Part shown: positions 4,648 to 63,881 of the stretch, piece by piece
Numbering within the stretch: the first letter of the stretch is position 1
Layout of the letters: each line of letters starts with the position of its first letter
DNA from: Chiloscyllium plagiosum
Lineage: Eukaryota
Assembly (NCBI RefSeq): GCF_004010195.1
Contig: NC_057749.1
Coordinates: 16,434,524 to 16,498,523, forward strand
DNA: 64,000 nt
Direction of reading: 5' to 3'
The notes under the pieces: model-generated
Databases searched by the model: none
What the model was told of the DNA's origin: nothing
The model's input: the letters and a program-made list of their open reading frames with translations, nothing else
Made by a program: the position numbers and the translations under genes

Positions 4648-7600
4648 GTGAGAAAATAAAATGCAGCTTTAACAAAAAAAAACTCTTCTTGGGAGAATTT
4701 GTCCCCACATGGAGCCCAGCATAGATAAGTTAAACTATAATTTCCAAGTATTTAGAATAAATTTAAACCCAAAATATTTATTGTAACTCTTTCAATAATT
4801 TGTAAATTGGTCTGGATGATTACTATTGCTTTAATTGCAGTATTGTCTCAAACCCATTTATGAAAAAAAACCTAAAATAAATGCAGATGCTGGAGAGAGA
4901 AATAAAAACAAAGTCCAAAGAAATGTCATTGAGCTCAAAACATTAGCAGTGTTTCTCCTGCCACAGGTACCGCTGCTGACTTTCTCCAGCACGTTTTTTT
5001 AAACTTTATGAACTGAGCATATTGGTTTCTAATATTATTGACTTAGCCAAGGGAATGAGACTTTGCAGCAACAGGAAAAGAACATTTTAATGTCTGAATT
5101 GAATGTAAGGATGTGGCATGGCTAAACAAGAATATGAAAAGGCAAAACAAACCCTGCAGAATGGAAGATTAAATAATGGTAGAAAGAGTTGGGAAAACAA
5201 GAGATTATTGTAGTCTGAAATTGCTGAGGTACTGGCCAGAGCAGGGTTTATAAGGAGCAAAAAAACACTTATCAAAAACGCATCCAATTACATCCACTAT
5301 TTTTGAATCCTGATGTAAATTTGGAAACCAGCTGTACACGGTAAAATTTCACATTTAATACAAGATTAATTCATTAATTGTCCTGCTCTCCATTAGCTGG
5401 CAATGTTGACAAGGTTATTAGAGCTGAAAAGTGCTGCACTGGAAAAAGCACAGGAGGTGCTCCTCAGATGCTGCCTGACCTCCTGTGCTTTTTCCAGTGC
5501 AGCACATTTTGACTTGGAACTCTTCAGCATCTGCAGTCCACACTTTCTCCAAGGTTATTAGAGCTACTCACCTTCGTTATAGTTCTGTAGCAATTTAACA
5601 TGAAGCCTAACAGTCTGCATTATTGATGCAATAGCTTTGATGCACAGGAGGATCAGCCTTGAAGCATGGCTTGATCCTAGAGAAGGTCGAATGAACCAAA
5701 CTGATAATGAATTGTAAATTATTGGGGCTGCTGGAAATCTGAAATCTAAACAGAAATACTCAACCGGTCAGGCAGTGTGTGTGGAGATTGAAAACAAATC
5801 AGCTTCTTAGGGATGTTCTAATGAAAAGTCATTGACTTGAAAGTTTACCTGTTTCCCTCTTCAGAGATATTGCCTGACCTGCTGAATATTTCTAGCATTT
5901 TCTGTGATAATTAAGTGAACTGTAAGAAACATGGAGGATACATTTTGGTTTTTAATCTTCTGAATGAAATAAAGGCCAAGACATCCATCCTTCGTCAGTG
6001 GTTGGATCATAAACAGCTTGACTTGCCTGAACGTCCTATAACAGCTGACAGGGATGTGCCAGCACCAGTGCTTAAATGTGATTTGTTTTTGTTTTAGGAA
6101 CTGACTTTTTTAACAAAGCAAGACATTCTGCAGTAAGTGGAGGATTTTATATTTTGTTTCATGGTCTCTGTAGAGTAATGGAAATGTTCCTCTTTTAATC
6201 TGAAAGGAAAGTGTCAGTAAAACTCCCCAACACCATCCCCATCAAACATTTGCATAAACCTATATCTCTCGTTCAGTTGTATCATGCACAGGAATGTGGG
6301 TTAAATACAAAGTAAAGCTACCTCTACTCTTTTTTTTTTTGAAACTGAAATTAAAGCCCACTTGACTCTTTTAAACTGGAAGTAAACTGTAAGTAAAGTT
6401 CCCTCAACACTGTCTCCATCAAGCATTGCTAGAACAAGAACACAGGGGGTAGATACAGAGTAAAGCTTCCTCTATTCTGATTAAAGTAAGTCAAAAATAA
6501 TAATGAAACAGCCCCTGCAAAGGCATTATATTGAACTAAAACACAAATTTGCAGTCAACGTTCAATGTGTAGATGCTCTCAAGAATGGCTTGGGTGAGAT
6601 ATTGGATGAAATTTGGTACTGTGAAACTGTTCCTAGAAAGGAGTTAGCATAACATGTAAAGAGTAATGATTAATATAGTCAGTAGCTTGATAATTGTGAA
6701 TAAATAGCCACTTCACGACGATTGCGACAAATTTCCTAGTCATTTTCATCTTTCAATTGAATTAATGCATAATCCAGAACATTTTAATGTCTGAACTGAA
6801 TGCAAGGATGCGGCATGGCTAAACAAGAATATGAAAAAATGAAACAAACCCTGCAGAATGGAAGATTAAATAGTGGTAGAAAGAGTTGTGAAAATAAGAG
6901 ATTATTGCAATCTGAAATTTCTGAACTACTGGTCAGAGCAGGGTTTATAAGGAGCAAATAAACTTGTCAAAAATGCATCCAATTACATCCACTATTTTTT
7001 AAGTCCTTGATGTAAGATTTCACAATTAATACAAGATTAATTCATTAATTGCCCTGCTTTCCATTAGCAGACAATGTTGTAAGAGTTGAAAAGTATGGAA
7101 AAATCAGGCAGCATTCGAGGACATAACAGTCAAAGTTTTGGGCACAAGTACTGGTTCTTTATCTTAAACATTAACCTGCATCCTGCTCCTAAATTACATT
7201 GTAATCTGCAGTTCTAGTTGAAGAATTTGCGCAGCTTATTTTGAACCATTCTAAAGAGGTTTAAAATATTAATGCTCATTAACTCTTTTATCCACAAAGA
7301 GCTTATCGAATATTTGCGGAGCTGCTTTCAAAAGATCTGGTTGACTTCCAAAACACAAGAGTTTCAAAGGACAGAATCTGTGAGATGCCAGAACTGAAGG
7401 TATGAAAAGACCTCCAAAGTAGTCTTTATGATTCTTGTTCAATTATCAGTCTGGAGAAATCTCTATGTCCCAGTTGTTCTCAACAGCGAAAACAATTCAG
7501 CGAAGTGCTAACATCACTGCAATGTTTTAGGTAGTGCTAACGTAGAAGTGGATTGGTTAAAGCAAATGGGTCATGTTAAAAGTCCTCTGAGCTCGAGGAG

Positions 7601-14573: not shown

Positions 14574-14646
14574 GCCCGGCTAGCTCAGTCGGTAGAGCAT
14601 GGGACTCTTAATCCCAGGGTCGTGGGTTTGAGCCCCACGTTGGGCG
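14574..14646 (+). tRNA. tRNA-Lys(CTT) gene or young pseudogene
   Basis: GCCCGGCTAGCTCAGTCGGTAGAGCATGGGACTCTTAATCCCAGGGTCGTGGGTTTGAGCCCCACGTTGGGCG matches vertebrate tRNA-Lys-CTT as I recall it, except T at 14629 (TTC to TTT in the T-loop). Anticodon 14607-14609; TTTT at 14656-14659. Confidence 0.9.
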
Positions 14647-14683
14647 CGCTATTAATTTTACACAAAAAGCTGAATCATTGAAA

Positions 14684-16255: not shown

Positions 16256-16443
16256 TTAGAAATCACAACACCAGGTTATAGTCCAACATGTTTATTTGGA
16301 AGCACTAACTTTCGGAGCGCTGCTCCTTCAACAGCGGTCTGAAAGCTAGTGCTTCCAAATAAACCTTTTGGACTATAACCTAATGTTGTGTCATTTCTAA
16401 CTTTGTACACCCCAGTCCAACACTGGTGTCTCCAAATCATGAC
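16256..16443. mobile_element. Palindromic Penelope-derived insertion (family B)
   Basis: Inverted arms ~16256-16313 / 16341-16400; flanking TACTCAGA(C/T)AT at 16243-16253 and 16444-16454; same sequence family as 31065-31270 and 32960-33070. Confidence 0.7.
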
Positions 16444-24000: not shown

Positions 24001-27000
24001 TGTTGATTTAGAAGAGACTTTATCAATGTAAGACCCAGGAAAGTTTCATGGCAGCCATTGCTGGGTTGTGGCTCATAAACCTGAAATGTCATCGGTTTCG
24101 GTATCCCAGAAATATTAAAACCCCTTTCTGCAACAAATGTTTAAAAGAACATTTTCAAGGAAAAGCACAAGTGACAAGAAATAGTTTCTTTTATTTTCAA
24201 AGAACACATAAGCTTTCATGAACATATATCACATTTCTTATATCTCTTTATGCATAGGGCAACCTGTGTGTACAAAATTTTCACACTGCAATGAGACCAT
24301 CTCACTTCTCGGAGGGAACAAAAGAATGAAACATAGTTAAAAAGTACACATTTGTTTCTGGCAATTAGTAGAAAAGAACACATGTAATTTTATCACAAGT
24401 ATTACTAAAACATTAAAACATACCTCTGCTTGTGAGAGACAACAGACTCTTCAAGACCATTAGCGATCTCGTCAGTCTTTGGATTATGCATAAAACAAAC
24501 ATTCATCCTTCAGTTGCACTAAACAGTAGTATTCACGAAGAGTGAAAAGCGTCAACGTAAAGAAGGAACATGTAGCACAGCAAGGGCAAATCTTGCAACT
24601 CAATCTTTGTTGAAAGTATCCTTACATTTCAGAGGTACACAATAATTCTCATCTTACCCTCTCCTGAGAGCCCCTTCTGCCAAGAGGTCTTCCGCTGCTT
24701 CTCCTCAGAGCATGACTTTGCAGGAAGGCCCAACTGCCCAGACTCATTCCATCCCCAAACATACAAATCTCCTGATGCTAAAGGGATTTAAAAAGAAAAC
24801 ACAAGGACAAATAATGGCAAGTTTTGAATAAATATATTCAGAAACCAGACTTACACATTTAAGTATTGCCAATGGCAGATGTGGGTAAACATCTAGACTT
24901 TATAACAGTTGTGCTTTAGATTCCTGTAATTTCTCAGTTATTCAGAGAGCCTTAACCAACTATGGTACCCCACTGTCATTCCTAAACAACCTATTTTAGA
25001 AACTGCTATTATTGGGTAAATGCATAGTGTTATACTGGAGTATACAGAGCAGAAGGTCCCCTGCTTGATTCTTGCTCTATTCTAAATTAGTTGAGGTAAA
25101 AACAATGACTGCAGATGCTGGAAACCAGATTCTGGATTAGTGGTGCTGGAAGAGCACAGCAATTCAGGCAGCATCCGAGGACAGGCAAAATCGACGTTTC
25201 GGGCAAAAGCCCTTCATCAGGAAAATTAGGTGATCCAAGTAAAGTCATCAGATGGACCTTAGAGAAACAAATCTTAATGCTACTGCTGTAAATGGCCATC
25301 CCTGGCCAATCAGATAAGGACAGGACCTGGCTCAAATGATATGGTTTCCTTAAATGAATACTCAGGCTCACAAATAAGAAGATCACATGAATGAGGCACC
25401 AGGGGTATGAGATGCTCCAGTATGCCTCAATATTTGTAGAGGCACAGGAGAAGAAACCAGGTGAAAAGTTGTTTTGGAACAGTCTTGTAGATGTGACACT
25501 CAGTTTCAGACATAAAGGCAGTGAAGGATAGAACAGGAGCCAAATGCAACAACCAGAGTCTTCTATTTATATTAGGTTAAATGAATCCCCAGTTCAAGTC
25601 CACCAGCTGAATACAATTAAAACACTTGGTTAATATACCATCAACAGCAGGGTCTGCCATCATACATGGAGAAAAGTGACCTTTATCAGCAAGCAGTAGT
25701 GAGGATACTGACATAGTATTCCTATGGGGAAAAGAAACTGCACGACCATTTGTCTCCAGTACTACAAAATACCAGTGTCAGAGAAGGGCGTACGAGAGGA
25801 AGTTCAGGTATCTGTAAATATATTGTAAATGAAGATGCTACTGCAGCAATATACCTTACCACTTGAACTCACAGAATGCCAGCCTCCAGCTGCTACTTCA
25901 GCCATAGCCAGCCCATGTAATGCCTCCACAATACGTGGTTCTGCTTCATCCTCAACACCACCATGTCCCAACTGACCATGCCTGCAAAAATATCACTACA
26001 ATGAAAAACAAGCGTTGTTTCAATATCTTCAACAACCTTCAAGTTCCTTCCCAAAGTAAATCAGTCCCGAGAGGTTTCACAGACAAAAAACAAATCAACA
26101 ATAGCAGGAGTGACACCGTAGCAGAAAAGGTTGATACCGAAAATATTTGTAAAGATAGGAAATACGTAATGATGGATATATTTGGAGAATAGTGTTGAAA
26201 AAGCTGTAAGTTTAGAGAAGGAGATGTACTCTCAGTTAAAATTACCATACAATGCTGTCAATGCTATTTTAACAAAGATCAGAGCACCTATAAAGGTGTG
26301 AAATCAGTTCCATGGTAACAACCACAAAGCATTTTCCAAACTGAAAGCTGTTCAGTTTTCATTTTTTTTCCCCCAGATATTCTCTTTCCCCTAATGCTGG
26401 AGGTGCTTCTGTACTTTTGTAGTGGTGCTCACTGCCCTTCAGTACTTCATGCACAAGTCTGTATAATTAATGCCGGCACGTTATTTCCGCTTGAAATTTT
26501 ATTATGGCCAAGTCCAATGCTGCCAAACCATGTTCACTTTCCAAATGGTTCAGTGGATATTAAACAGCAATTGGAACATTGGCTGGTACTTTTCACCATG
26601 GCCCAAGGGCAGTCATTCAGTGGTTACATCTAACCTTGATCAATCAACTCAGCAGAAACAAGCAAATAAACTAGACCTTGTTTTTATGGTTTTTATTCTG
26701 CAATGGAGCATCAAGAATGCTCATTTTGTGGATTTCACTTAATCAGTTAATGGTATTTTAGATCCAGAATTATTGGATGGCTAAATTTAAGCTGTAACCA
26801 ATCAAATCTACATTTCTTAATCCAAGGCCAAGTTCAATTTTCACATTATTGCTCCTGAGGTCAGGAGCATATTTCCACAAGTCAGGTCAAAATGTACCAG
26901 GTCAAATATCAAACAATGTACAAATGCTTAATGTACAGGATAGTATAATTCAATATCATAACAAAGATTAAATCAAGTACGTACAGAATGAAATAATGGT

Positions 27001-30000
27001 TTGAAAACTGAAGCAGAATTGATCTTAAAGATAAAGTCAATATTAAGTGAATGGGAGATATGGTACAATGATCAGAGCTATTTTCAGAATATCTAACCAT
27101 TACCACTGAAGTTTAACCATATTTAGAGGCTCTAATATCCAAGACAATAACAAGCAATTATATAACACCTTTAATATTATAAAAGATAGAAAGTGACATC
27201 ATGCTATATAAGAAATTTTTAAAATTTACATCAGCTTGTTATGGTCACTAATGACAAATGGGAATTCCATCATCATTTCAAATTTAGGCAAAAAATAGTG
27301 TTTTAACCCACATGGGTCATGCATAGATCCCTTAAGGCTGGGTACAAAAACACATTTGAATAACTAGATTTAAACCAACCTCTTGTTGCTACAGAATCCT
27401 TTTAACAACTGTTATATTGAGTCTAAAATCTAGAATATTAGTCAATAATCTACGAGTACACACACAGCTACAGAGTAAGTCTTACCGTCCTGAGCCCCAG
27501 GAATACACTGTCAAATCACAGTTCAGGAGGACAGCATGCTCACTGCCAAGTGCCAGCTTTTTCGCACGAAGTTGTGGTGACAATGGTTTGTAAAACGGAG
27601 GTGTTGTTGTGACATACCCACCAGGGATCAGTGGAAGTGCTTAGAGGGGGAAAACAGAGGAATAAAATAAGTGTTTTACCTTGTCATTCCCTGGTAATTA
27701 GAAAAACTACCCAAAGTGGCAAAAACATAAAGACCTACTGTCTTCACTGAGTTAATAAATTAATTTGGATGAAACAAAAAGGTGTTTTAATGGAATCTGT
27801 GTTCCTGGGCCAAATAACAGTAACTCAGCCCAAGGTGCCACTCCTCATCATTACCCAGCTCTTCCAATTGCAACACAAAATGTATAGCCGATCAACAACA
27901 GTAAAAGAAGATTAATGTATTCACAAGAAAGTTTCTAAGAGACATGCTACAATTTTACAGCATGTTTAGGTTCTTCTCTTGCTTCTTAAATTAGGGAGAG
28001 TGTAGCAAGTTATAGCACCCCCACCATCTTGGCACAGAATCAGGAACTGTCAGGCCCTGTGACTTGTTATTAATCTCAGCCATGTATTTAACCAGCAAGC
28101 CACATCAGTCAAATTGAATTCTCTTTGAGGAGTAATTTGATCCTGATGCATAAGTCAACTGCACATCTTGATTAATGAGAGGAGAGCACTAAGTCATCTT
28201 CCACTGATTTAAACTGGAGTTGATACATCACCAGGAACCATTCCCAATTAATTCCCTGTTTCCTCATGGCAGAAAAAATAACATTGCAGCATTAACTGTA
28301 TTACAACACTTGCACAGTGGAATCAAATTCAATGTAGAGCGTGTTTATACAACAACTGTACTGAAATTATAAGCAAGTGAATATCCTTTCAAAGATTACA
28401 AATAGAGTTTAAACATTGTTCTCAGCAATGGGATTTTGGGTTGGCTGTTGTACAAAGTACTCAACTTACCTCTACAGGAGATATTGTCACAACACATTAG
28501 CTCTGAATGCAGGAACTGTTTTTCAATGTCCTAATGTGCAGCATACCAATGAATATTAAATATTAATTTAGTTTTAGATACTAGTACTCAATAAATACAT
28601 TAGCTCAATAATTGGGTGTAATTGTTGCAGAACAATGTTATTCATTATCAGTGCCAATGGACACAAACTTACCAAATGTCTTATTCAAGAGCTGCTCTGA
28701 TCAGTGTGTAATTACAAATGACAGCACATTGAACTTCACCTGTGATTTTCCAATTCATGTCACTGTGTAGGCTTCCCCACACAAAGAAAAAGAAAACAAG
28801 CTTACTGCAAATACACAATGTCACTTTAATGGGGGGGAGCCTCATTCACCAGACAAACGCCAGGACAGGTCTAACGTGTCTTGCCAGTAATGTGTTAAAT
28901 TTTACTCTTTTAAACTGAAAGTAAAACTTCCTTGCACTGTTCCCACCAAATACTCCCACGACAAGGACAACACAGGGTTACATACAGAGTAAAACTTTCT
29001 CTACATGTTCCCATCAAACACTCCCAGGACAGAGAGAGTATGAGAGCTGCACAGCAGAGTTCAAGTGGCTTTAAATGGAAGCCAAAAAACAAAAAGCAGC
29101 AAATCTTCTAACTGCCATACTGTAATCACCAGGGATCTATCAACACAGTTATTACCAGTGTTAATTGAAACAAATTTGAAAGGTGAAACAAATTTTACCA
29201 AAGCATGAACCACAGCATCTAATTACAAAAAAAACCCATCCCATTTTAAATTCTTCTATATGTATGTGGTGAGAAATCTATTTGAAGACCCTTAATACTT
29301 AGGAAAATATTGATAAATTGGCAAAAGTCTCTGACTACAAGATTTGATTAACTCAGTTATAGTAATTTGACATTCCTGATGAAGGACTTATGCCCAAAAC
29401 GTCAACTCTCCTGCTCCTCGGATGGTGCCTGACTTGCTATGCTTTACCAGCGCCACACTTTTTGATATAGTAATTAACAGCTCAGTTACACACACTTGAA
29501 AGTTCAATTCCATCTCTGCTGATTGAGTCGGTCTCAGCTGGTACTCAATATTACCACTGACTTGAATTATACTACCTACAAGATGAGGGAAGAAATAGGC
29601 ACATGAAAGAAAAAGTCAGAAGTGTGCTCCAAACCTAGCATCTAGAGACTATACACAGATAGGGCCAAATCACACCTCCAACTGAAACTGAGCCACATGG
29701 GTCAGTACTAATGAACCATTGGCATCTATGTTTACATATATAGCAAGGAAATAGCCCAAGGAGGCAGAAAATGCATGAAAATATTAAAAAAGCAAAAGAG
29801 AGCAGTAGGAATAGGAGTAGGTGAAAGGCTTGTACTGCATTTTACTTACCAACCTGTACATTGCTTTTCCCCTTCCTTCAGCTGCCTCGTCCAAGTCAAG
29901 TCACCCGTGACCTCTCCAGTACAAAGCTTCTGGATATCCCTGCATTCCACTCTATCCTGCCATAACATTAATAAGTACTTCTCAGAGGACAGGATGTCCG

Positions 30001-32811
30001 TGCAATCCTGATGGGCTTGGTTATTAATGCACATCTGTTGCCAAGGGCGACCATCAACAAAGCCGAACAAATAAGTAGATCCATCACCTGAAACAAAACT
30101 GAAATAAGTTAATGAGATGCAACGATTTCTTTGGGTTTATTCTGCCACAAAAAACTAGAATAGAAGATAAAATCATTTAATGATATTAATCTGTAAATCT
30201 GTTTTTTTCCCTTCCCCTGAAAGCATTGATTCAAGCATTTTTCCATTACATTTTTAATGGGCCAACTCTCACCTTAATAGAAGTACTGCTCATTTGCAAG
30301 TGTAATGGGCCAAGATGCAGAAAACATCAGTATTGAAACAAACTGTTGACCAGCTTTAATAAAATTCAATTGGATAAATTTTGTTAGATATGGAGACCAG
30401 GGCATATGAAGTAAAGGCACCATCCCTGAGGAAACACAGGAGCACGATGGCATATTTGGGAACATGTGGCCCTGAGAATCCTCAACATTGTGTCTTGAGG
30501 AACTGGAGTCAATGTCAAACACCATCAAGAAAACCTCATGGCTGCCACTTACCACCCTCCCTTAGCCATCAGGAACTCCTCCACCCTTTGATTTCAAAAA
30601 CAAATGAAGAATAAAAATAAGGAATAAAAGCAAAATACTGCAGAACCTAGAATGCTGAAGCTGGAGAAACTTAGCGGGTCTGGGAATATCTATAGAGTGT
30701 AACAGGGGAGCAGATTAGGCATGATTTTATGGAATTGCAAAGCAGGCTCAAGGGGCTGAATAGCTTACTTATGCACGTTCAGAATTGTTTCTTGTGCATG
30801 CATATAACTTGCAGACTCATGGCTCCGGATGCAAATATTTTCCACCTCAGAATCGCCACAATCACCAGAGACACCCCCTACCTAAGACTCTTCCCCAACT
30901 CACCTGACTCCACCCCTCATTCAGGGCTGAGGGATGGGGCGGAGCTGAGGGAAGAGGCAGGGCTGAGGGGATGGGGCAGGATGTGATAGTTTCCCTATCT
31001 CTGGTCCAGGAGGCCCAGGTTCCAGTCCCACTCTGTCCAGAGGTGTGTCATAAATTCTCTGAAGTTAAAAATCCCACAACACCAGGCTATAGTCCGACAG
31101 GTTTATTAGGAAGCACTAGCTTTCGGAGCGTCGCTCCTTCATCAGGTGGTTGTGGAGCAGGATCATAAGACACAGAATTAATAGCAACAGGAATACAGTG
31201 TGATGTAACTGAAATTATACATCAAAAAATACCTTGATTGTTTGTTAAGTCTCTCATCTGTTAGAATGACAGGCGGTTCTGTGGACATGGGCAAGACTCT
31301 CGGATGGTTTGTTGCCTCCCGGGTGTCAGGGTCCGAGACGTCTCGGACCGTGTCTTCAGAATCCTTAAGGGGGAGGGTGTGCAGCCAGAAGTCGTGGTGC
31401 ACATTGGCCCCAACGACATAGGTAGAAAGAGGGGTGGGGAGGTCATTCAGGAGCTCAGGGAGTTAGGCTGGAAGCTAAAAGCTAGGACGGACAGAGTCGT
31501 CATCTCTGGGTTGTTGCCGGTGCCACATGACAATGAGGCAAGGAATAGGGAGAGAGTGCAGTTGAACACGTGGCTGCAAGGATGGTGTAGGAGGGAGGGC
31601 TTCAGGTATTTGGACAATTGGACTGCATTCTGGGGAAGGTGGGACCTGTACAAGCAGGACGGGTTGCACCTGAACCAGAAGGGCACCAATATCCTGGGAG
31701 GTAAGTTTGCTAGCNNNNNNNNNNNNNNNNNNNNNNNNNNNNNNNNNNNNNNNNNNNNNNNNNNNNNNNNNNNNNNNNNNNNNNNNNNNNNNNNNNNNNN
31801 NNNNNNNNNNNNNNNNNNNNNNNNNNNNNNNNNNNNNNNNNNNNNNNNNNNNNNNNNNNNNNNNNNNNNNNNNNNNNNNNNNNNNNNNNNNNNNNNNNNN
31901 NNNNNNNNNNNNNNNNNNNNNNNNNNNNNNNNNNNNNNNNNNNNNNNNNNNNNNNNNNNNNNNNNNNNNNNNNNNNNNNNNNNNNNNNNNNNNNNNNNNN
32001 NNNNNNNNNNNNNNNNNNNNNNNNNNNNNNNNNNNNNNNNNNNNNNNNNNNNNNNNNNNNNNNNNNNNNNNNNNNNNNNNNNNNNNNNNNNNNNNNNNNN
32101 NNNNNNNNNNNNNNNNNNNNNNNNNNNNNNNNNNNNNNNNNNNNNNNNNNNNNNNNNNNNNNNNNNNNNNNNNNNNNNNNNNNNNNNNNNNNNNNNNNNN
32201 NNNNNNNNNNNNNNNNNNNNNNNNNNNNNNNNNNNNNNNNNNNNNNNNNNNNNNNNNNNNNNNNNNNNNNNNNNNNNNNNNNNNNNNNNNNNNNNNNNNN
32301 NNNNNNNNNNNNNNNNNNNNNNNNNNNNNNNNNNNNNNNNNNNNCCTCCTTTCCCACAGACTCCACCTCCTTTCCCACAGACTCCACCTCCTTTCCCACA
32401 GACCCTGCCTCCTTTCCCAGACCCCACCTCCTTTCCCACAGACTCCGCCTCCTTTCCCACAGACTCCACCTCCTTTACCAAAGACCCCGCCTCCTTTCCC
32501 AGACCCCGCCGATCCCATGAGACTCCACCCCCTTGCCGTGAGGCACCTTCCTTCACCTGAGGCTCACCCCACCCCGTGCCACATGAAGCCCCCGAGTCCG
32601 AACCTCCCAGGCAGGCAGTGTAACTCCAGGCTGGGCTCATCTTCCTCAGGGAGGATCTGTCCGCCGGCCATTGTCCGGCTTTCTCCGGGCTGTGCACGGT
32701 CACCGTGACGGGCTCCAGGACCTTCCCGTCCCCCTCGCGCTCCCTCCGGTTGGCGACCTGCCCGAACTGATTAAACCCGAAGCCAAACCAGCGGCCAGTC
32801 GACGCCGCCAT
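17917..32811 (-). CDS. RCCD1: RCC1 domain-containing protein 1, whole gene span (8 coding exons, 1197 nt, 398 aa)
   Basis: Exons 32811-32604, 30087-29854, 27639-27486, 25981-25860, 24777-24658, 20798-20619, 18520-18491, 18065-17917 splice in frame. [12 protein letters not shown]-terminus and RCC1 repeats ([52 protein letters not shown]); lies next to UNC45A as in human. Confidence 0.92.
18491..18520 (-). CDS. RCCD1: RCCD1 coding exon 7
   Basis: ttttccag|(R)EGNLFTWGW(G)|gtaagt, 30 nt. Confidence 0.9.
19722..19983 (+). mobile_element. HE1-type V-SINE, 5'-truncated
   Basis: V-domain and tail match the 59237 copy. Confidence 0.85.
20619..20798 (-). CDS. RCCD1: RCCD1 coding exon 6
   Basis: ...[34 protein letters not shown]|gtaagt, 180 nt. 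Confidence 0.9.
21500..22900 (+). mobile_element. CR1-clade LINE RT/3' remnant with an internal older Penelope-derived insert (~22160-22335)
   Basis: cagcatggctccatgaaggagaaatca, ttggatttctaaaaggcttttga (LDF.KAFD), NFADD and a CR1-type tail. Confidence 0.7.
23070..23580 (-). mobile_element. CR1-clade LINE 3' remnant
   Basis: ggaacaggagttggccattcagcccatcaagctcc...; reverse complement of a CR1-like 3' end. Confidence 0.6.
24658..24777 (-). CDS. RCCD1: RCCD1 coding exon 5
   Basis: [39 protein letters not shown], 120 nt. Confidence 0.92.
25093..25222 (-). mobile_element. Penelope-derived short insertion (family A) carrying an intact hammerhead core
   Basis: gactgcagatgctgg...cagcatccgagg...tcgacgtttcgggcaaaagcccttcatcagg, flanked by AAATTAG(T/G)TGA direct repeats. 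Confidence 0.75.
25190..25224 (-). ncRNA. Putative minimal type-I hammerhead ribozyme motif
   Basis: Minus strand TTC-CTGATGA-A-GGGC-TTTT-GCCC-GAA-ACGT-C-GA: core boxes, 4-bp stem II, palindromic stem III, GUC cleavage triplet. Stem I is weak. Confidence 0.55.
25860..25981 (-). CDS. RCCD1: RCCD1 coding exon 4
   Basis: [40 protein letters not shown], 122 nt. Confidence 0.95.
27486..27639 (-). CDS. RCCD1: RCCD1 coding exon 3
   Basis: [50 protein letters not shown](R), 154 nt. Confidence 0.92.
28915..29035 (-). repeat. Degenerate monomers of the 69-bp minisatellite family
   Basis: cacagggttacatacagagtaaaactttctctacatgttcccatcaaacactcccaggacag. Confidence 0.65.
29371..29465 (+). mobile_element. 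Penelope-derived short insertion (family A), decayed hammerhead
   Basis: cattcctgatgaaggacttatgcccaaaacgtcaactctcctgctcctcggatgg...; TATAGTAATT on both sides. Confidence 0.65.
29854..30087 (-). CDS. RCCD1: RCCD1 coding exon 2
   Basis: tttcag|[16 protein letters not shown]...EGEKQCT, 234 nt, phase 1-1. Confidence 0.85.
31065..31270 (-). mobile_element. Penelope-derived fragment (family B) carrying an intact hammerhead core
   Basis: caacaccaggctatagtccgacaggtttattaggaagcactagctttcggagcgtcgctccttcatcaggtgg; homologous to the 16256 and 32960 copies. Confidence 0.7.
31114..31148 (-). ncRNA. Putative minimal type-I hammerhead ribozyme motif
   Basis: Minus strand CAC-CTGATGA-A-GGAGC-GAC-GCTCC-GAA-AGCT-A-GTG: 3-bp stem I, 5-bp stem II, palindromic AGCU stem III, CUA cleavage triplet. 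Confidence 0.6.
31270..31714 (+). mobile_element. CR1-clade LINE ORF1 fragment (SGNH/GDSL esterase domain), runs into the gap
   Basis: Uninterrupted reading [12 protein letters not shown]...[11 protein letters not shown]...[10 protein letters not shown]...[36 protein letters not shown], typical of the CR1 ORF1 esterase. Confidence 0.85.
31715..32344. other. Assembly gap (630 N)
   Basis: Run of n characters. Confidence 1.
32345..32510 (+). repeat. 21-bp minisatellite (CCTCCTTTCCCACAGACTCCA)n
   Basis: About 8 imperfect units running into the gap, just downstream of RCCD1 exon 1. Confidence 0.9.
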
Positions 32812-33834: not shown

Positions 33835-34181
33835 CTGAAAATGTGTTGCTGGAAAAGCGCAGCAGCTCAGGCAGCATCCAAGGAGCAAGAGAATCGATGT
33901 TTCGGGCATGAGCCCTTCTTCAGGAATGAGCAAAGTGTGCCAAGCAGGCTAAGATAAAAGGTAGGCAGGAGGGGCGTTGGAAATGCGATAGGTGGAAGGA
34001 GGGTGATAGGGTGAGGGTGATAGGGTGAGGGTGATAGGGTGAGGGTGATAGGGTGAGGGTGATAGGGTGAGGGTGATAGGGTGAGGGTGATAGGGTGAGG
34101 GTGATAGGGTGAGGGTGGACTGAGTGTTTCCAGCAACACATTTTCAGCTCTGATCTCCAGCATCTGCAGTTCTCACTTTCT
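33835..34181. mobile_element. Penelope-derived insertion (family A) with inverted ends, hammerhead remnant and 16-bp TSD
   Basis: CCTTGATAGTTTAAAG at 33819-33834 and 34182-34197; agctgaaaatgtgttgctggaaa vs tttccagcaacacattttcagct; minus-strand CTGAAGA-A-GGGC-TCAT-GCCC-GAAACATC at 33896-33923. Confidence 0.8.
34001..34112 (+). repeat. (GGGTGATAGGGTGA)8 perfect tandem repeat, G-quadruplex-prone
   Basis: Eight exact 14-nt units counted. Confidence 0.95.
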
Positions 34182-34199
34182 CCTTGATAGTTTAAAGTC

Positions 34200-51000: not shown

Positions 51001-54000
51001 CACTGATCTGAAATATTAACCAATTCTCTCTCCATAGATGCTGCTGGACCTGAGGGGCATTTCCTGTTTCTATTTAAACTGTATTCATGCTCATTTCGTA
51101 CACCCTGCCTTGATTTATTTGAATCCTGTGGAGTTGGAGGTTTCCACAAAGTTCCTCCTAACATTGTTGCTGCACAAATATATCCTAAATCAGAATGGTG
51201 TTAGTGTCTGTAGCTCAGCCAATCTACAAATTAACAGCAGGAGCTGCTTAATATTTGTTTCCAATCAGCCTCATGAAGAGTGGTTCTCTTTCTGAATCAA
51301 TAATTCATAGACCGAGACCAAATTTTTGTGAGTTTGAGAGCCCAAGAGTTCAAACGTAATCACAGCAGCTAGGAAAATTAGAATCAGTTAACTAAATAAG
51401 TTTAGAGTAGTAAGCCAATATCAGTGATTGTGACCATGTAACTAGTAGATTGTCATAAAAATCTATTTAGTTTGCCAATGCAATTTGAAAAAAATCTTGC
51501 TGTCTGAGCAAGAGCACCTTCAGCCACTTCTAGCATGACCTGCATTGCACACACTGACTGACAGAGCAACTGGTCTGGTCATATTCATGTTCCATGTGAC
51601 AGATCCACACTCAGTGAATGCATATGAGAAAAGAAGCAGCTTTTTCCCTAACACACACGAGAAGCACTGGCTCCCTCAGTTTTACACCTTACCCTGGTCA
51701 ATTACCCAAATGGTCATGGCGTTGTTGGGATCACGCAAGGATTTCCGGGGAACATGCTTAATCAGGAGGTTTACAGAATTGTCTCGGCCATGAGTGGACA
51801 CCTGCGGCTGAACCAACATCTCCAACAGCTGGTGAATCATCATCTTCAATTCCTTCAAAGGTTCTAAAGATAAATTAATAATTGTTAGTTATTTGAACAC
51901 AAAGTCTAATTAATGCTTCATAATCTGAGAGAACTCTTCAAGAAATATTCAAACTTTTATAGCCCATGTAGCTACCAATGCTCCACAAGGTATCACCAAT
52001 CCAAAACATTTTTGAGAGCTGCCTTTCTGAAAGGCAATACTAGTTATCTAAACTAAAACAGAACTTTAACTGCAGAAAACCGATAGTAACATTGAAACTA
52101 ATGTTATGAAGAGTGGGAAATCATTTCCGCACAGAGATATCACTCACCGAGAACCACCGCCTCCTCTTTTCCTCGAATATCACTTTTTATTCCCCCTTTC
52201 AATGAATCGAACATGCTTTGCAGAACATTGCATGCTGCTAGGGAAACCTGCTCCTGGTCACTGCCCATCACGCGACAGAACCTGTCCATTCCTATTGTGT
52301 GCAAAATCACTGTCACCTGCAAATAGGAATCAAAACTAAACATAACAAAGGCATTATATAAAACAAGCTTTTTCCACACCAAAATAAATAGATCCAGCTT
52401 AAACTGAATAAACGTCTGATGACAGACAAGTGTCAATTGCTACACATTTCATACAGCACTGAATAAAAATTTACAATGGGAGCAAATACAACTATAAAAT
52501 TATACTAAACATATTTTACAACGCTCCCATTTCTTACCTGGAGATTCTACTTTTCGTGATTAAATTTTGTTTGAAACCTATGAAGTACCTTGGAACACAT
52601 GACTAGACAAAGGCCTGGTAGAGATTGTGGTATAATGGTCACTGGACTAGCAATCCAGAGGCCCAGGCTAAATGCTCTGGGGACATGGGTATAAATCACA
52701 ACATGGCACTTGGGGAATTTATATTCAATTTATAAAATTTATAATGGAAAACCAGCCTCAGTAATGGTGATCATGTAAGCAATCAACTACAGTAAAATCT
52801 TACCTAGTTTGCTGATGCTCTTTAGGGAAGGAAATCTGCCAGCCTTACCTGCCGTCCTTACCTGGCATTCATGAGACTCCAGAGCCACAGCCATGTGGTT
52901 GATTCTCAAGTGCCCTTTGCAATGGTCGAGTAAACTACTCAATTCAAGGCCAATTAGGGATAAGAGAAAAAATGTAGGCTTTGCTTGTGACACCCATACC
53001 CCAAAGACTAAATTTTCAAAAGGCACTACATAGAGTCATAGAGATCTACAGCACCCAAAGGGCCCTTCAGCCCAACATGTCCACACCAGTCAAAACCAAC
53101 CACCCAATATTTTAATGCCATTTGCCAGCACTTTAGCTATTGCATTGTATGTCCTGGTTCTATATAAATAAAACTTGCACAATTTTTTCATCATACTTCT
53201 GTATCACATTTTCCACTTCAATTTTGCAATGACAACTGTCAAGTTGGAGTGTCTGGTCACTGTGTGCTTTATAGCATAGAAACATAGTGAATTTACTGCA
53301 CAGAAAGAAGTCACTGAGTTCATCATGACTCCAAGTCAACCAATCGATTCTGTTTCCAGCTTGGAGCTCTGTAGGTGCTCTTCACAGAATTATTATCCAA
53401 AAAGAATGCAAGTGAGATTGTTTTAGTCCTAATTTTTCTGCGCCTGACTGACCCGGGATTGGTGGCCTGAACACAGTCCCACTAGAGTCCGGAGTGAAGC
53501 CAGCACGATGTCTGTATTCCCAGTGTCCAACATCTTCTGGAGAAGATGCACCCCATCACTGCGAAAAATCCTTTCAGCCCCTGCATCTTCCCGAGCAAGA
53601 ACAATCAGATTCTGAACAGCCTGAAGGGGAAATAAAATATTTAAAACAGGTATCTTATTGGAATAAGAAGACATATGAATTCTCAGTTTCAAATTTCTTT
53701 GAAAGTTTAAATTCCAGCTATAGCCCAATGGGCAGCACAGTCATCTCGGAGTCAAGAGGTTATCAGGTGAAACCTTTTGCTGGAACCTGACCACTTAAGC
53801 CCCAGTACTGAAGGAGTGTTGCACTGTCAGAGAAGCAGTCTCTCAGATACAGTTGTTCAACTTCCTTTCTTAAAGGGTTTTCTTTTAAGATTTCTATATA
53901 TATCATTCATGGCTTCCCATCTCAACTATTGATAATTTCTTACTCTTTGGAGGGTAGGTGTGGACTTGTTGGGCCGAAGGGCCTGTTTCCACACCGACAA

Positions 54001-57000
54001 TCCAAAGAGTAACCCACCCAGACCCAATTCCCTCTGACTAATGCACCTGATAATATGGGCAATTTAGCATGGCCAATCCACCTGGCTGGCACATCTTTGG
54101 ATTGTAGGAGGAAACCGGAACGGACACGGGGAGAATGTGCAAACTCCACACAGACAGTTGCCTGAGGCTGGAATCGAACCCGGATCCCTAGTGCTGTGAA
54201 ACTGCAGTCCTAATCACTGAGCCACTGTGCTGCCTCATGGCAGCAAAATATGCTACAATATCATTCCAGTTTTTTCGCTATCTAGCAGGAATTTCAGTCA
54301 ACATGACTGAAAACTAACTCTCTGATTATTTAACTGATACTATGCAGCTCATTATGCAGCTGCCCTCCAGAGGCAACCTGCATACATAAGTACAAAATCT
54401 ATAATTACACTATTAGCTGTTACTCTATTGTTCAAGGTGAATGCAGAACGAAACATTACAGACTCAGTGTTGTGCTGTACCTCAAACCCAAGACAACTTC
54501 CCTAACCCAGATGCTTTTCGCCTGCAGCACATACATGCCATTATCTCTAATGAGAATGCTTTTAGGAAAACAGAGACCTTTTGTTTCTTGTCAGAATCTT
54601 TCTCACTAGGATCCAAGAGGATGTTAAACATCTGCTCTACACGGGCATCTGTAGAAGACTGTTGTCGGACCTTGAACAGAGATAAAGACACAACACAATC
54701 AGAACGTTACACTGGGAATTTAAAGAACACATCAACAAATTGAACTTCCTAGGTGCAGTCCTAGGTGACATTTAGCATCTTTCATTAATGGTAAAACTTC
54801 AAATTAATTTAGGGATGTTTTTTTGAAGTTTACATTTCAAGTTTGATTGACACATTTCTTGTGAACAACCCGAAGAACCCTCTCCAAACACAGCCTAAGT
54901 TTGGAATGACTGACTCTAGAATTGTATACTTTACACACCCTGTGTTTTAGTTTACTGAAGCTCAGAAAAAGACCAGAATGAATGCATGGGAATGTTGCTT
55001 TGACAAAATAAAATAATAAGTATGAAAAAGCTGAAGTCAATTTTTATACCATGCAATACTGACAATATTTTTAAATTTTTCTGTTAAGAGTCAACCACAT
55101 TGCCATGATGGGATTCAATCGCACGTCCCAGAGCATTAGGCTTGATCGCTAGACTACAAGTCCAGTGATAATATCACTGCACCAACCCCTCCCCAGAGAC
55201 GTGCTAAATCAGAATTTAAAAAGGCAACCCAGAAGCATATCTTCACTATTGTTTCTGATAGTTCCCTCCTCTGCCAATCTGGCCCTTCTAACTTCTGGTT
55301 TTGCTTGCCCTCCTACTGCCTTTTCCCACCAACCAATCTGTTTCTCTTCTCCTGACCCACCCACACACACTTTACCTTCTCCTGGATCTTTGTTGCAATT
55401 TGCCGCAGTGATTCCTGAAAAACCTTGTTCTTTGGTTCCAGAACAGCACATCTCTGGATATCAGCAAACGCCTGATCCAGTCTGCCCAGTTCCTGCAGAG
55501 CCTGGCTCCTACGGAACAGGGCTTTCACATCCTTCTCATCTGATTCGATTACTGAGAACAAAAGGACAATCATTGCTTTGGAGCAAACATTCTTGAGGGT
55601 CATTGCAAATTTACACAGAAATGTAATTAATTCAAACAGGTGGAATCCACAGCCCAGAGCGGCACAAGAGAGAAATTAGGAACAAAATAATTTGGATAGA
55701 TGTTTAATGAACTAACCAAGTTCACCACATAGTCTTTTCTGATTCAATACTTTGCTCTCATGTTTTAATCTAATTACATCAAAAACAGGGCACTGACAAA
55801 AAATATTCAGACAATCCCAAATTAAAACACTCTGGAACAGCATGTGCACATAACCAAGTAAACATACCATCACCAAGCAGTGGTAATTTGTACACAAAAC
55901 ATACATTTCTTATCACCTACCTTTTGAGGCATCTGCTTCAGCCTTTGAGTACTCCTCCTAATGAGTAATGGAAAAAAAAACAAAATTCAAACATGGGAAC
56001 TGGCAACTACAATGGCACAATTCACATTTTTCAAAAGGTCACCTGTGAACATTTGTGTATTTTGGTTTTACTCACCAATTTAAGGTAGCAGGCTGCTCTA
56101 TTGCGGTAAAGGATCATGCCCTCTGACAAGTTCTGGGATAGGTCAATTGCTTGTGTATAGCAGGATAAGGCTTTCTCATAGTCTCCCAATTTAAAATACT
56201 TGTTGCCATCCTCCCGCAACAATGCCACACTAGCCTGCAACAAGAAATTGATAAGTTATACAGGTCACATCCAATATCATATGGGCATCCATGGGAACTG
56301 CTGGCTCTGACTTCACACAAAATTGGTAAAGTAGTCAAAGAGGTCAAAAATTTGCAGGATTAGAGCACCTTACACGTTTGGAAGTGCGGCACATAATTGC
56401 AGCATTGTAGGAGGTGATTTACCTGCCCTCAGATGTTTGATGGGGACAGTGTCGAGGGAACTTTAATGTGTATCTAACCCGATGCTGTCCCTGTCCTGGG
56501 AGTGTTTGATGGGGACAGTGTAGAGGGAGCTTTACTCTGTATCTAACCCTGTGCTGTCCCGTCCCTGGGACTGTTTGATGGGGACAGTGTAGAGAGAGCT
56601 TTACTCTGTATCTAACCCATGGGGTGTCCCTGTCCTGGGAATGTTTGATGGGGACAGTGTAGAGGGAGCTTTACTCTTGTATCTAACCCCATGCTGTCCC
56701 TGTCCTGGGAGTGTTTGATGGGGGACAGTGTAGAGGGAGCTTTACTCTTGTATCTAATCCATGGGCTGTCCCTGTCCTGGGAGTGTTTGATGGGGGACAG
56801 TGTAGAGGGAGCTTTACTCTTGTATCTAACCCATGGGCTGTCCCTGTCCTGGGAGTGTTTGATGGGGGACAGTGTAGAGGGATCTTTACTCTGTATCTAA
56901 CCCCATGCTGTCCCTGTCCTGGGAGTGTTTGATGGGGGACAGTGTAGAGGGAGCTTTACTCTGTATCTAATCCCATGCTGTCCCTGTCCTGGGAGTGTTT

Positions 57001-57724
57001 GATGGGGGACAGTGTAGAGGGAGCTTTACTCTTGTATCTAACCCATGGGCTGTCCCTGTCCTGGGAGTGTTTGATGGGGATGGTGTAGAGGGAGCTTTAC
57101 TCTGTATCTAATCCCATGCTGTCCCTGTCCTGGGAGTGTTTGATGGGGGGACAGTGTAGAGAGAGCTTTACTCTGTATCTAACCCATGGGCTATCCCTGT
57201 CCTGGGAGTGTTTGATGGGGGACAGTGTAGAGGGAGCTTTACTCTGTATCTAACCCTGTGCTGTCCCTGTCCTGGGAGTGTTTCATGGGGATGGTGTAGA
57301 GGGAGCTTTACTCTTGTATCTAACCCATGGGGTGTCCCTGTCCCTGGGAGTGTTTGATGGGGGACAGTGTAGAGGGATCTTTACTCTGTATCTAACCCTG
57401 TGCTGTCCCTGTCCTGGGAGTGTTTGATGGGGATGGTGTAGAGGGAGCTTTACTCTGTATCTAACCCATGGGGTGTCCCTGTCCTGGGAGTGTTTGATGG
57501 GGGACAGTGTAGAGGGAGCTTTCCTCTTGTATCTAACCCATGGGCTGTCCCTGTCCTGGGAGTGTTTGATGGGGAGGCTCTGGTGTATCTGAAGCTATAT
57601 CTTGACTCAGGGATTGATGATGTTCGGGAATTCCCAGAGTTCAGGAAAGTTTCCGAGTTCGAACCCTTCATGTTACCACCGCCCACCCCAAAGCCGCCCA
57701 CAGGTCTCTCACCGTCTCCGCCAT
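35824..57724 (-). CDS. UNC45A: Protein unc-45 homolog A (myosin co-chaperone; TPR + central + UCS), whole gene span (20 coding exons, 2808 nt, 935 aa)
   Basis: All 20 exons splice in frame with GT-AG sites. TPR ([10 protein letters not shown]...[12 protein letters not shown]), central and UCS motifs ([66 protein letters not shown]). Adjacency to RCCD1 supports the A paralogue. Confidence 0.95.
36330..36545 (+). mobile_element. Deu-domain SINE remnant (SacSINE1/AmnSINE-like)
   Basis: ggtgagacattaacc...ggccaatacttatcccttaatcaatatcact...tctggttattatcctattgct resembles the Deu core as I recall it. Confidence 0.55.
37548..37703 (-). CDS. UNC45A: UNC45A exon 19
   Basis: [36 protein letters not shown]...MTQV, 156 nt. 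Confidence 0.95.
38201..38318 (-). CDS. UNC45A: UNC45A exon 18
   Basis: [39 protein letters not shown], 118 nt. Confidence 0.95.
40051..40166 (-). CDS. UNC45A: UNC45A exon 17
   Basis: [38 protein letters not shown](R), 116 nt. Confidence 0.95.
40693..40806 (-). CDS. UNC45A: UNC45A exon 16
   Basis: [38 protein letters not shown], 114 nt. Confidence 0.95.
41785..41851 (-). CDS. UNC45A: UNC45A exon 15
   Basis: [22 protein letters not shown], 67 nt. Confidence 0.95.
41980..42440 (+). mobile_element. L2/CR1-like LINE 3' ORF remnant
   Basis: [11 protein letters not shown] and [23 protein letters not shown]-terminal RT-type peptides. Confidence 0.6.
42690..43030 (-). mobile_element. tRNA-derived SINE (second family)
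   Basis: Homologous to 45550-45875, 52625-53010 (+) and 62100-62440; B-box-like gggatttgaaccc on the plus strand. Confidence 0.65.
43298..43425 (-). CDS. UNC45A: UNC45A exon 14
   Basis: [22 protein letters not shown]...CKEMIA(R), 128 nt. Confidence 0.95.
44322..44462 (-). CDS. UNC45A: UNC45A exon 13
   Basis: [22 protein letters not shown]...QHVPEEHPK, 141 nt. Confidence 0.95.
45213..45354 (-). CDS. UNC45A: UNC45A exon 12
   Basis: WLCNN...[22 protein letters not shown]...ELAK, 142 nt. Confidence 0.95.
45550..45875 (-). mobile_element. tRNA-derived SINE (second family)
   Basis: aacatttactgcccatccctaatt...ttaagactcaatcacattgctgtgggtctggagtcaca...ggatttgaaccc. Confidence 0.65.
46794..46888 (-). 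CDS. UNC45A: UNC45A exon 11
   Basis: [31 protein letters not shown], 95 nt. Confidence 0.95.
47100..48740 (+). mobile_element. CR1-clade LINE ORF2 remnant
   Basis: [35 protein letters not shown] and [14 protein letters not shown]...[10 protein letters not shown]; frameshifted. Confidence 0.8.
49316..49616 (-). CDS. UNC45A: UNC45A exon 10
   Basis: [25 protein letters not shown]...KIRALV, 301 nt. Confidence 0.95.
50203..50374 (-). CDS. UNC45A: UNC45A exon 9
   Basis: MRKILEVAG...[23 protein letters not shown], 172 nt. Confidence 0.95.
51693..51863 (-). CDS. UNC45A: UNC45A exon 8
   Basis: [16 protein letters not shown]...[20 protein letters not shown], 171 nt. Confidence 0.95.
52148..52316 (-). 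CDS. UNC45A: UNC45A exon 7
   Basis: VTVILHTIG...RGKEEAVVL, 169 nt. Confidence 0.93.
52625..53010 (+). mobile_element. tRNA-derived SINE (second family)
   Basis: gtggtataatggtcactggactagcaatccagaggcccagg...ggggacatggg...; reverse of the 42690 and 45550 copies. Confidence 0.65.
53453..53620 (-). CDS. UNC45A: UNC45A exon 6
   Basis: [19 protein letters not shown]...LCSGHQSR, 168 nt. Confidence 0.95.
53940..54234 (-). mobile_element. HE1-type V-SINE with inverted (fold-back) 3' end
   Basis: 53995-54234 is a minus-strand SINE body; 53940-53994 is the SINE tail in plus orientation. Confidence 0.8.
54578..54670 (-). CDS. UNC45A: UNC45A exon 5
   Basis: [31 protein letters not shown], 93 nt; weak donor AAG|GTCTCT. 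Confidence 0.9.
55376..55551 (-). CDS. UNC45A: UNC45A exon 4
   Basis: [18 protein letters not shown]...KIQEK, 176 nt. Confidence 0.95.
55921..55957 (-). CDS. UNC45A: UNC45A exon 3
   Basis: [12 protein letters not shown], 37 nt. Confidence 0.93.
56076..56234 (-). CDS. UNC45A: UNC45A exon 2
   Basis: [19 protein letters not shown]...[11 protein letters not shown], 159 nt. Confidence 0.95.
56434..57575 (+). repeat. ~69-73-bp minisatellite, about 16 units, in UNC45A intron 1
   Basis: Unit TGTTTGATGGGGACAGTGTAGAGGGAGCTTTACTCTGTATCTAACCCTGTGCTGTCCCTGTCCTGGGAG; 17 unit starts counted. Confidence 0.95.
57713..57724 (-). CDS. UNC45A: UNC45A coding exon 1 (MAET)
   Basis: aagATG GCG GAG ACG|gtgaga in a CpG-rich region; phase 0 matches exon 2. 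Confidence 0.75.
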
Positions 57725-58224: not shown

Positions 58225-58720
58225 GCTGAGGGGTGACTTTTTAGAGGTTTATAAAATCATGAGGAGCATGACTAGGGTAAATACACAAGGTCTTTTCCCT
58301 GGGAAAAAAATCTAAAGGGCATAGATTTAAGGTGAGAGGGGAAAGATTTAAAAGGGACCTAAGGGGCAACTTTTTCACACAGAGGGCAGTGTATGTATGG
58401 AATGAGCTGCCAGAGGAAGTGGTGGAGACTGGTATAATTACAACATTTAAAAGGCATCTGGAATGGTATATGAGCAGGAAGGGTTTCGAGGAATATGGTG
58501 GAAGTGAGTACTGCAGATGCTGGAGATTAAAGTCAATATTAGAAAAAGCACAGCAGGTCAGGCAGCATCCGCAGAGCAGGAAAATCAACATTTTGGGCAA
58601 AAGCCCTTCATCAGGAATATGGGTCAAATGCTGCCAAATGGAACTGGATTAGTTTAGGATATCTGGACGAGTTGGACCAAAGGTCTGTTTCCATGCTGTA
58701 CAGCTCTATGATTCTATGAC
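58225..58720 (+). mobile_element. CR1/HER1 LINE 3' end interrupted by a family A insertion (~58500-58618)
   Basis: RGERFKRDLRGNFFTQRAVYVWNELPEEVVE peptide; ctctatgattctatga tail; GGAATATGG on both sides of the insert. Confidence 0.8.
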
Positions 58721-61114: not shown

Positions 61115-61306
61115 TTTAGTCGAGAGTGTGGTGCTGGAAAAGCACAGCAGGTCAGGCAGCATCTGAGGAGCAGGAGAATCGATGTTTCAGGCAAAAGCCC
61201 TTCATCAGGAATTGGGAGCAGGAGAATTGACATTTCGGGCAAAAGCCCTTCATCAGGAATCTGGAGTCCATCAGATCTCCAGCATCTGCAGTCCTCACTT
61301 TCTCCT
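61115..61306 (-). mobile_element. Penelope-derived insertion (family A) with a tandem pair of hammerhead units
   Basis: Two units with 48-nt period at 61167-61212 and 61215-61260. Confidence 0.75.
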
Positions 61307-61789
61307 GGATTTAGACAATACAACAATAAATAACAGAACAAAATGCTGACAGGATGAGATGACATAGGGGAGGAGGTTCATGTTGAATATAAATACCAGG
61401 AATTGGTCTAAATGGACTGCATCTGTGCTGTATAATTCTATACAGTTCAATTAATAGAGATGGTTTAAGATATGGGCCAAATGCTGGCAAATAGGACTAG
61501 ATTAATTTAGAATATCTGGTCAGCGTCGACTTCTGTGCTGTACATCTCTATGACTCTAGGTTGGGATTAATCCTTTTGGAAATGCATGTGATTAAGGACA
61601 ACAACATATTTTCTGAAGTTATATATAGGCCAAACTGGATGGAAGATTTCCTTCACTAAAGGGCATGATTGATCCAGATAAATGTTTCTCACTTTGCAGA
61701 ATGATTCAATTATTGAGAGGAAACAAGTCAAAAATAAGTAGGTTAGGAGAGTGACTAGCAACAAATAGGATTAAAAAGGAGAATAAGTG

Positions 61790-63359: not shown

Positions 63360-63520
63360 AGGTGAAGTGAGGGCTGCAGATGCTGGAGCTTCGAATCAAG
63401 AGTGCGGTGCTGGAAAAGCACAGCAGGTCAGGCAGCATCCAAGGAGCAGGAGAATCGACATTTCTGGCTTAAGCCCTTCATTCCTGATGAGGGACTTATG
63501 CCCAAAACATCGATACCTGT
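63360..63520. mobile_element. Penelope-derived insertion (family A) with two decayed hammerhead units in inverted orientation
   Basis: ...gaatcgacatttctggcttaagcccttcattcctgatgagggacttatgcccaaaacatcga. Confidence 0.65.
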
Positions 63521-63881
63521 TCCTTGGACACTTTTTGACTGTAAAAATCCAGGAGCTAATTAGCAGTAATTAATTGCACATGGGGTAAGTGTTCAAAGGG
63601 ACCATTTTCATGGCTGCAGTGGAATATTGGCTTTTATATAACACAGCACTGACCCAGGTGCTGCGTGGTGCTGGGTAACACTGTGGTTAGCACTGCTGCC
63701 TCACAGCACCAGGGACCCAGTGTCACAAAGCCAGTTCCTTTTTTCTAAAAGCTGTCCCTTTTCTCAGGGATACTATGCCCTTGGTTTTTTTCAGAGGGGT
63801 TGTAAATCACTCCCGGTGCTGATTAGACTGGTTTGGTACAGAGATTAAAGGGTATTGAGAGGCCTGTTTGTTTATATATTT

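Follow-up and report, generated by a model that had tools for sequence, protein, structure and literature searches.

Minimal hammerhead ribozymes have been described from Penelope-like elements (PLEs) by Cervera and de la Pena (2014, PMC4209133), who give an extra nucleotide, a G10.1-C11.1 pair and a palindrome as their features, and who report such motifs from the Xena, Poseidon and Neptune elements of fish. In their assays a monomer was not cleaved and multimers were cleaved at a low level. A search of their supplementary file 2 gave no shark row, and our literature search, conducted outside Repbase and Dfam, found no description of a shark PLE minimal hammerhead. With regard to the elements themselves, Craig et al. 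(2021, 10.1101/2021.04.23.441226) place a CX2-5CX2C linker in Neptune and Nematis and none in Penelope or Poseidon. PLEs may carry an optional tail of 30-40 nt, Penelope has an internal promoter in its pseudo-LTR (pLTR), and Naiad elements proliferate without a hammerhead.

Functional data are available for PAc, a Poseidon element of Anolis carolinensis (Frangieh et al. 2024, PMC11167929), in which the tail was traced to two internal RT start sites and ATT was the preferred cut motif. The PAc motif was cleaved with protein present, and C3/G8 rescue was demonstrated; ribozyme mutants inserted unimpaired in vitro, and no reads ending at the cut site were reported. Animal retrozymes, those of one chondrichthyan among them, have been presented as non-autonomous PLE derivatives, with cleavage in one of nine dimers tested (Li et al. 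2026, 10.64898/2026.07.22.740005); the supplements to that work may include shark families. Conserved intronic hammerheads exist in amniotes (PMC6155905).

The locus considered here lies in a 64-kb stretch of carpet-shark DNA, hereafter the window, in which a short hammerhead-bearing insertion interrupts an intron of RCCD1. This insertion is very probably a dead-on-arrival, 5'-truncated copy of an abundant EN-bearing PLE of Neptune/Nematis type (a placement made from the linker motif rather than an RT tree, with the two clades taken together), whose hammerhead is kept in master elements and is a passenger in RCCD1. The features of the insertion and its host intron are as follows.

25095..25222, minus strand: pseudo-LTR from a Neptune-type Penelope-like element, truncated at its 5' side to 128 nt; identity of 96.2% with the upstream pLTR of locus L091 over 131 nt
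25095..25130, minus strand: optional tail of about 36 nt, between two family 3'-end clusters
25223..25233, minus strand: target-site duplication, upstream copy, 11 bp, with one mismatch between the two copies
25084..25094, minus strand: target-site duplication, downstream copy, compared with 25223..25233
24778..25859, minus strand: RCCD1 intron, 1082 nt, GT..AG, between coding exons 4 and 5, with the splice joint in contigs
25860-25982, minus strand: RCCD1 coding exon 4, from the tblastn order
24658-24777, minus strand: RCCD1 coding exon 5, from the tblastn order

The host gene was identified from 25861-25980, which matches RCCD1 proteins, those of carpet sharks best. Shark RCCD1 proteins, placed by tblastn, give seven coding exons on the minus strand, running from 32811 down to 17920, and the insertion falls after the fourth and before the fifth of them; exons and introns are numbered here from coding exons, and a 5' UTR exon would shift the RCCD1 numbers. 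Positions 25860 and 24777 are joined in contigs from three of four sequencing runs (X1, X2 and X3), which are assembled, presumably from RNA, and of a kind that cannot show RNA ends or circles. The first-pass annotation had placed the copy in sense within RCCD1 intron 4, and both the minus-strand gene and the splice joint around 24778-25859 agree with it. None of the X1 contigs bridges the insertion, and the insertion-bearing RCCD1 allele is likely spliced across the intron.

The hammerhead occupies the 5' end of the inserted sequence.

25191..25222, minus strand: minimal type I hammerhead, from the core/stem II/GAAA descriptor and the published consensus
25222-25221, minus strand: stem I, 5' strand
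25220-25214, minus strand: core
25213, minus strand: extra A
25212-25201, minus strand: stem II
25200-25197, minus strand: GAAA
25194, minus strand: position at which the palindrome is completed
25193, minus strand: C17
25192-25191, minus strand: stem I, 3' strand

The letters first read on the minus strand proved correct: 25220-25190 runs CTGATGA, A, GGGC-TTTT-GCCC, GAAA, CGT and C, giving a stem II of 4 bp capped by a T4 loop, then GAAA, and then a palindrome of 4 nt directly followed by C17. A relaxed descriptor consisting of core, stem II and GAAA, with the single extra A optional, matched six times in the window, compared with 0.68 +/- 0.85 (maximum 4) in 100 dinucleotide shuffles; a plain pattern likewise matched six times, compared with 2.08 +/- 1.28, and 0 of 100 shuffles reached six. 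The hammerhead-like motif in the window is thus real and above chance. An Rfam scan of the window, which had been proposed as a check, returned no hammerhead among ten matches at E<=10.

Compared with the published minimal motif (PMC4209133), the copy at 25220 shares the CUGANGA core, one extra nucleotide that separates position 9 from 10.1, a stem II closed by G10.1-C11.1, GAAA, a palindromic 15.2-16.2, the NUH site and the absence of helix III, as well as the occurrence mostly of single motifs from truncated elements. The extra A had been entered as a caveat; it is instead a conserved feature of the PLE motif in that paper, and a single extra A is present in 95 of 111 descriptor matches within 328 kb of loci mostly selected for this family. 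The shark motif differs in its dimensions: helix II has 4 bp and helix I has 2 bp and a mismatch, towards the lower limit of the published rows, in which helix I goes down to 2 bp. The suspected weakness of stem I was borne out, there being two contiguous Watson-Crick pairs in the RCCD1 copy. Long copies of the element have two pairs, a U-U mismatch and an A-U pair; the RCCD1 copy lacks one of these stem I pairs of the master, since through truncation another base took the place of the A in the fourth pair.

The module recurs in the window as first listed: all sister copies were found, bringing the total to six insertions and eight modules, of which 25220 alone is intact and the other seven fail. 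Sister cores start at 29376 (plus strand), 33923 (minus), 58614 (minus), 61256 and 61208 (both minus) and 63484 (both strands).

29368..29464, ends approximate, plus strand: sister copy antisense to RCCD1, G12 lost, 12-bp duplication
33840..34190, ends approximate, minus strand: sister copy that includes 3' UTR and has an inverted piece of pLTR on its upstream side, 16-bp duplication
58500..58619, ends approximate, minus strand: sister copy, G12 lost, 8-bp duplication that overlaps the element at its 5' end
61120..61310, ends approximate, minus strand: sister insertion in which two cores lie 48 nt from each other, with an inverted piece and decay in both palindromes
63360..63530, ends approximate, no single strand: sister insertion arranged head-to-head about a centre at 63484; its 10-bp duplication contains one mismatch

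Target-site duplications of variable length, another element of the original description, are present at five of the six insertions (11, 12, 16, 8 and 10 bp), and a search at the 61208/61256 insertion found none. Inverted 5' pieces accompany the cores at 33923, 61256 and 63484. Within the 33923 copy, a 14-bp tandem repeat has expanded in the 3' UTR portion, at 33971-34124. The family has two further decayed members here, in which no usable core remains, at 5420-5555 (plus strand) and about 7100-7150 (minus strand), the former a fold-back with a 16-bp duplication.

Searches of the genome with the insert, and then with the sequence beside it in one match, ran into the end of an ORF on the upstream side and the start of one on the downstream side, and led to locus L091, which has a pLTR-ORF-pLTR structure and carries the minimal hammerhead in its pLTRs. 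The identity to the RCCD1 copy given above for the upstream pLTR compares with 93.4% over 91 nt for the downstream one. ORF copies in this genome match RT (E 3e-6) and GIY-YIG (E 0.001) with Pfam scores below the curated cut-offs, the copies being decayed; among full-length homologues, both domains are present in four of five proteins scanned. RT is followed by a C-terminal GIY-YIG domain with two cysteines between its motifs, and a CX4CX2C linker precedes the nuclease, a feature common to the full-length RT and GIY-YIG homologues, with three cysteines invariant in a nine-protein alignment. These comparisons establish the RCCD1 insert as a pseudo-LTR of this RT/GIY-YIG element, and supply the link to a GIY-YIG/RT Penelope copy that had been sought at the outset. 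Of 30 loci retrieved by means of the 3' UTR, 14 gave tblastn matches to such proteins; one of the 14, L075, resembles an unrelated RT when judged by eye. No stop-free full-length ORF was seen among the loci examined, L091 itself having a masked stretch and a stop, and no remnant of a PLE ORF was found in the 64-kb window. In L091:411-600 the ORF frame is open through the entire upstream pLTR, hammerhead included, and in intact copies the first in-frame ATG comes after the tail.

The genome holds 192,194 first-look candidates for the C-terminal protein, of which 125 were scored; while this figure is not a copy number, the wider class is therefore very abundant. The earlier assignment to an abundant family with a Penelope-type minimal hammerhead is upheld in this form.

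The shark family resembles the EN+ PLEs of the Neptune and Nematis clades (10.1101/2021.04.23.441226) in the order of RT and C-terminal GIY-YIG with internal cysteines, in the CX2-5CX2C linker, and in its partial tandems, inverted 5' copies, tail of 30-40 nt and variable target duplications. It differs in that the insertions described here lie in ordinary AT-rich DNA rather than microsatellites. With PAc (PMC11167929) it shares two 3'-end sites bounding the tail, a hammerhead at the junction of pLTR and ORF, and AT-rich targets; however, PAc belongs to the Poseidon clade, from which the linker is absent, and its first in-frame ATG is at stem II, whereas that of intact shark copies is beyond the tail.

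Across 132 modules, of which 46 are intact, the most mutated positions are those in CpGs, including the catalytic G12 (G12 mutated in 22, 15.2 in 24, 16.2 in 25 and C17 in 24, compared with none for A13), in agreement with the proposal that copies decay mainly at CpGs. The covariation sought as a test of the ribozyme was found between families, in the stems and palindrome, and was not seen among copies of the main family, which show decay only. In family B (11 copies), stem II is 5 bp long, stem I has three pairs and both sides of the palindrome are altered; in family C (nine copies), stem I consists of four other pairs and the palindrome is largely decayed at CpGs. Three unrelated families thus keep the core, the extra A and G10.1-C11.1, with paired bases swapped in stem II, stem I and the palindrome. 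These pairs were read by motif anchoring, a mixed-family MAFFT alignment being out of register, and family D (two copies) was left out of the comparison. As pairing is kept between families and decay alone is seen within, selection acts on masters and not on copies.

Several members of these additional families were noted in passing. Family B occurs at 31121-31145 (minus strand; intact, in sense in RCCD1 intron 1) and 16310-16334 (minus strand; within a fold-back with 59-bp arms), with a remnant near 32985. Family C, represented by L077:58(-), L055:748(-) and L060:1994(+), has a 4-bp stem I and U at position 17, and shares downstream sequence with the main family; decayed look-alikes lie near 5818 and 22250. 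Modules resembling minimal hammerheads at L028:1843(-) and L029:2038(+), with an extra T and a longer stem II, are unrelated to families A-C.

By analogy with the anole Poseidon study, the GIY-YIG domain would have nicked AT-rich DNA in the intron, RT would have used the more distal of the two internal start sites of the element RNA and copied about 128 nt, and the cDNA would have been joined to its target by T-rich microhomology immediately upstream of the core. Published assays suggest that the hammerhead of master lineages most likely has weak cleavage activity on tandem transcripts, acting as a dimer formed through the 4-nt palindrome, and probably with help from the protein of the element. 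The RCCD1 copy would be a passenger transcribed with the intron, probably cleaving rarely or never.

The ends of family members bear on how such copies arise. Their 3' ends cluster near +90 and +126 from C3, the RCCD1 copy having the long, tailed end; an extra peak at +113 marks where older subfamilies leave the reference. At the other end, 14 of 28 unselected modules start upstream of the core and no more than 9 nt from it (7 of the 8 in the window and 7 of the 20 in flanks), a count from which 103 of the 132 modules, picked by queries, and two flank modules beside N were left out. Head-to-head junctions are often centred at the same spot just upstream of the core. Clustering of 5' ends far exceeds random truncation and needs a cause, for which candidates are a TSS at an initiator-like A, microhomology or nicking at ATT, and fold-back priming. 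Truncation at the cleavage site was considered as a source of short copies and rejected, since the evidence for it is weak (of 55 incidental entries, only 3 have their start at +29/+30).

Four bases before the core, an A matches the initiator consensus, YYANWYY, in the subfamilies seen. We tentatively raise the possibility, more doubtful than probable, that short copies are unit-length products: transcripts would start at this A, reverse transcription initiated internally in the upstream pLTR would run as far as the 5' end of this RNA, and uniform solo pLTRs of ~95 and ~130 nt would result, with some deleted tandems (L043) perhaps also cycling as small circles. If so, this would explain the abundance of lone minimal hammerheads in vertebrate genomes and place the ribozyme at the extreme 5' terminus of the RNA; a TSS at the 5'-end cluster would tie internal RT initiation to the great number of solo hammerhead repeats, and bring the question of the PLE hammerhead's function into sharper focus.

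An alternative source of the short copies is a self-propagating non-autonomous family, whether a retrozyme or a SINE-like solo pLTR, trans-mobilised by the Penelope protein and possibly passing through circular RNA. The first-pass annotation favoured a non-autonomous, ribozyme-bearing retroelement system, and the clustered 5' starts speak for it, as does the description of animal retrozymes as PLE derivatives (10.64898/2026.07.22.740005). So does the five-unit 248-bp array at L043:1515-2790 (G000:C13), each unit of which comprises pLTR and ORF start with a hammerhead-type module; it is of the same variant as the RCCD1 copy, and the units compared differ from it by 1-2 in 92 nt. However, the inserted sequence is itself the pLTR of an RT/GIY-YIG element, and short inserts are therefore mostly 5'-truncated copies of this putatively autonomous family. 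Among 121 copies, a sample shaped by the queries used, all five named variants are present in short and long copies alike, distances average 16.4 between short copies, 12.8 between long copies and 15.9 between short and long, and the nearest relatives of the RCCD1 copy are long copies, at one difference in 92 nt. In one variant short copies predominate, 33 against 11 long, and for 35 of the 53 short copies every nearest neighbour is itself short.

The internally deleted tandems, surveyed in about half of 30 loci, differ in their junctions, as expected for one-off by-products, and the starting point of short copies lies upstream of the core rather than at the cleavage site. As for the non-LTR retrozymes (10.64898/2026.07.22.740005), the likeness extends to a non-coding, pLTR-derived sequence with a type I hammerhead, and L043 has the two or more consecutive units with complete hammerheads by which retrozyme tandems are recognised; the RCCD1 copy differs in being a monomer that extends from upstream of the core to the PLE tail. 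From these sequence relationships, the short copies appear for the most part not to constitute a separate lineage or non-autonomous family. A minor non-autonomous component is possible, tandem and internally deleted derivatives being in existence, and a non-autonomous direct source for the short copies is improbable.

It is less probable still that the RCCD1 copy is an active intronic ribozyme which cleaves the pre-mRNA and tunes RCCD1 output in the manner of the domesticated hammerheads of amniote introns (PMC6155905), a role implied by the initial description. Its intact core, sense orientation and retained C17 would suit such activity. Against it, one 869-nt X2 contig from organism B (a single contig of depth about 3, from an organism a few percent diverged in the intron) crosses the insertion site and skips 139 nt, equal to 128 + 11, and is exactly the expected empty site of a related organism. 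The RCCD1 copy is therefore young and not conserved; conservation at the orthologous intron, a trait of domesticated intronic hammerheads, is absent, with the site empty in that one contig.

The local fold also disfavours the active form. In predictions which leave out tertiary contacts and protein help, stem I of the RCCD1 copy forms with a probability of 0.006, a hammerhead-like fold costs 5.6 kcal/mol, and intermolecular pairing of the palindrome is worth -3.1 kcal/mol. The minimum free energy fold of 71 nt is of no unusual stability (z = -0.75), and in it the core pairs with the cleavage-site strand. Long copies are hardly better, with predicted stem I probabilities of 0.01-0.05, and the predicted folds are therefore compatible with protein-assisted cleavage. 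The monomer assayed by Cervera and de la Pena (PMC4209133) did not cleave, and the modules found in the RCCD1 span include no intact sense copy with the same palindrome as a partner: 29376 is antisense, 31145 has another palindrome, and 33923 is mutated and upstream of the first coding exon.

That the likeness to a hammerhead is due to chance, or that the motif has another function, either as a promoter or as a site bound by protein, with no cleavage at any time even in the master, a view which concerns catalysis alone and leaves the identity of the insertion unaffected, merits almost no credence: the missing Rfam match, the weak stem I of the family, the normal insertion of anole ribozyme mutants in vitro with no read ends reported at the cut site (PMC11167929) and the success of Naiad might be cited for it, but three unrelated families exchange paired bases around a constant core, extra A and G10.1-C11.1, and the anole motif was cleaved with protein and rescued at C3/G8.

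Read as a truncated PLE copy, the RCCD1 insert extends the known PLE motif to a Neptune-type family of carpet sharks, and is itself one recent and ordinary intronic insertion. The genome offers a useful test bed, with at least three families of covarying minimal hammerheads, young and near-identical copies, and tandem arrays.

Other repeats were noted in the window. A tRNA-Lys(CTT) gene or pseudogene at 14574-14647 (plus strand) is directly followed by a copy of a SINE-like repeat, which is dispersed also at about 17050, 19700, 54000-54230, 59240, 63660 and 63880. A tandem array with a period of about 71 bp occupies 56442-57574, and a single inverted related unit lies at 28935-29012 in an RCCD1 intron.
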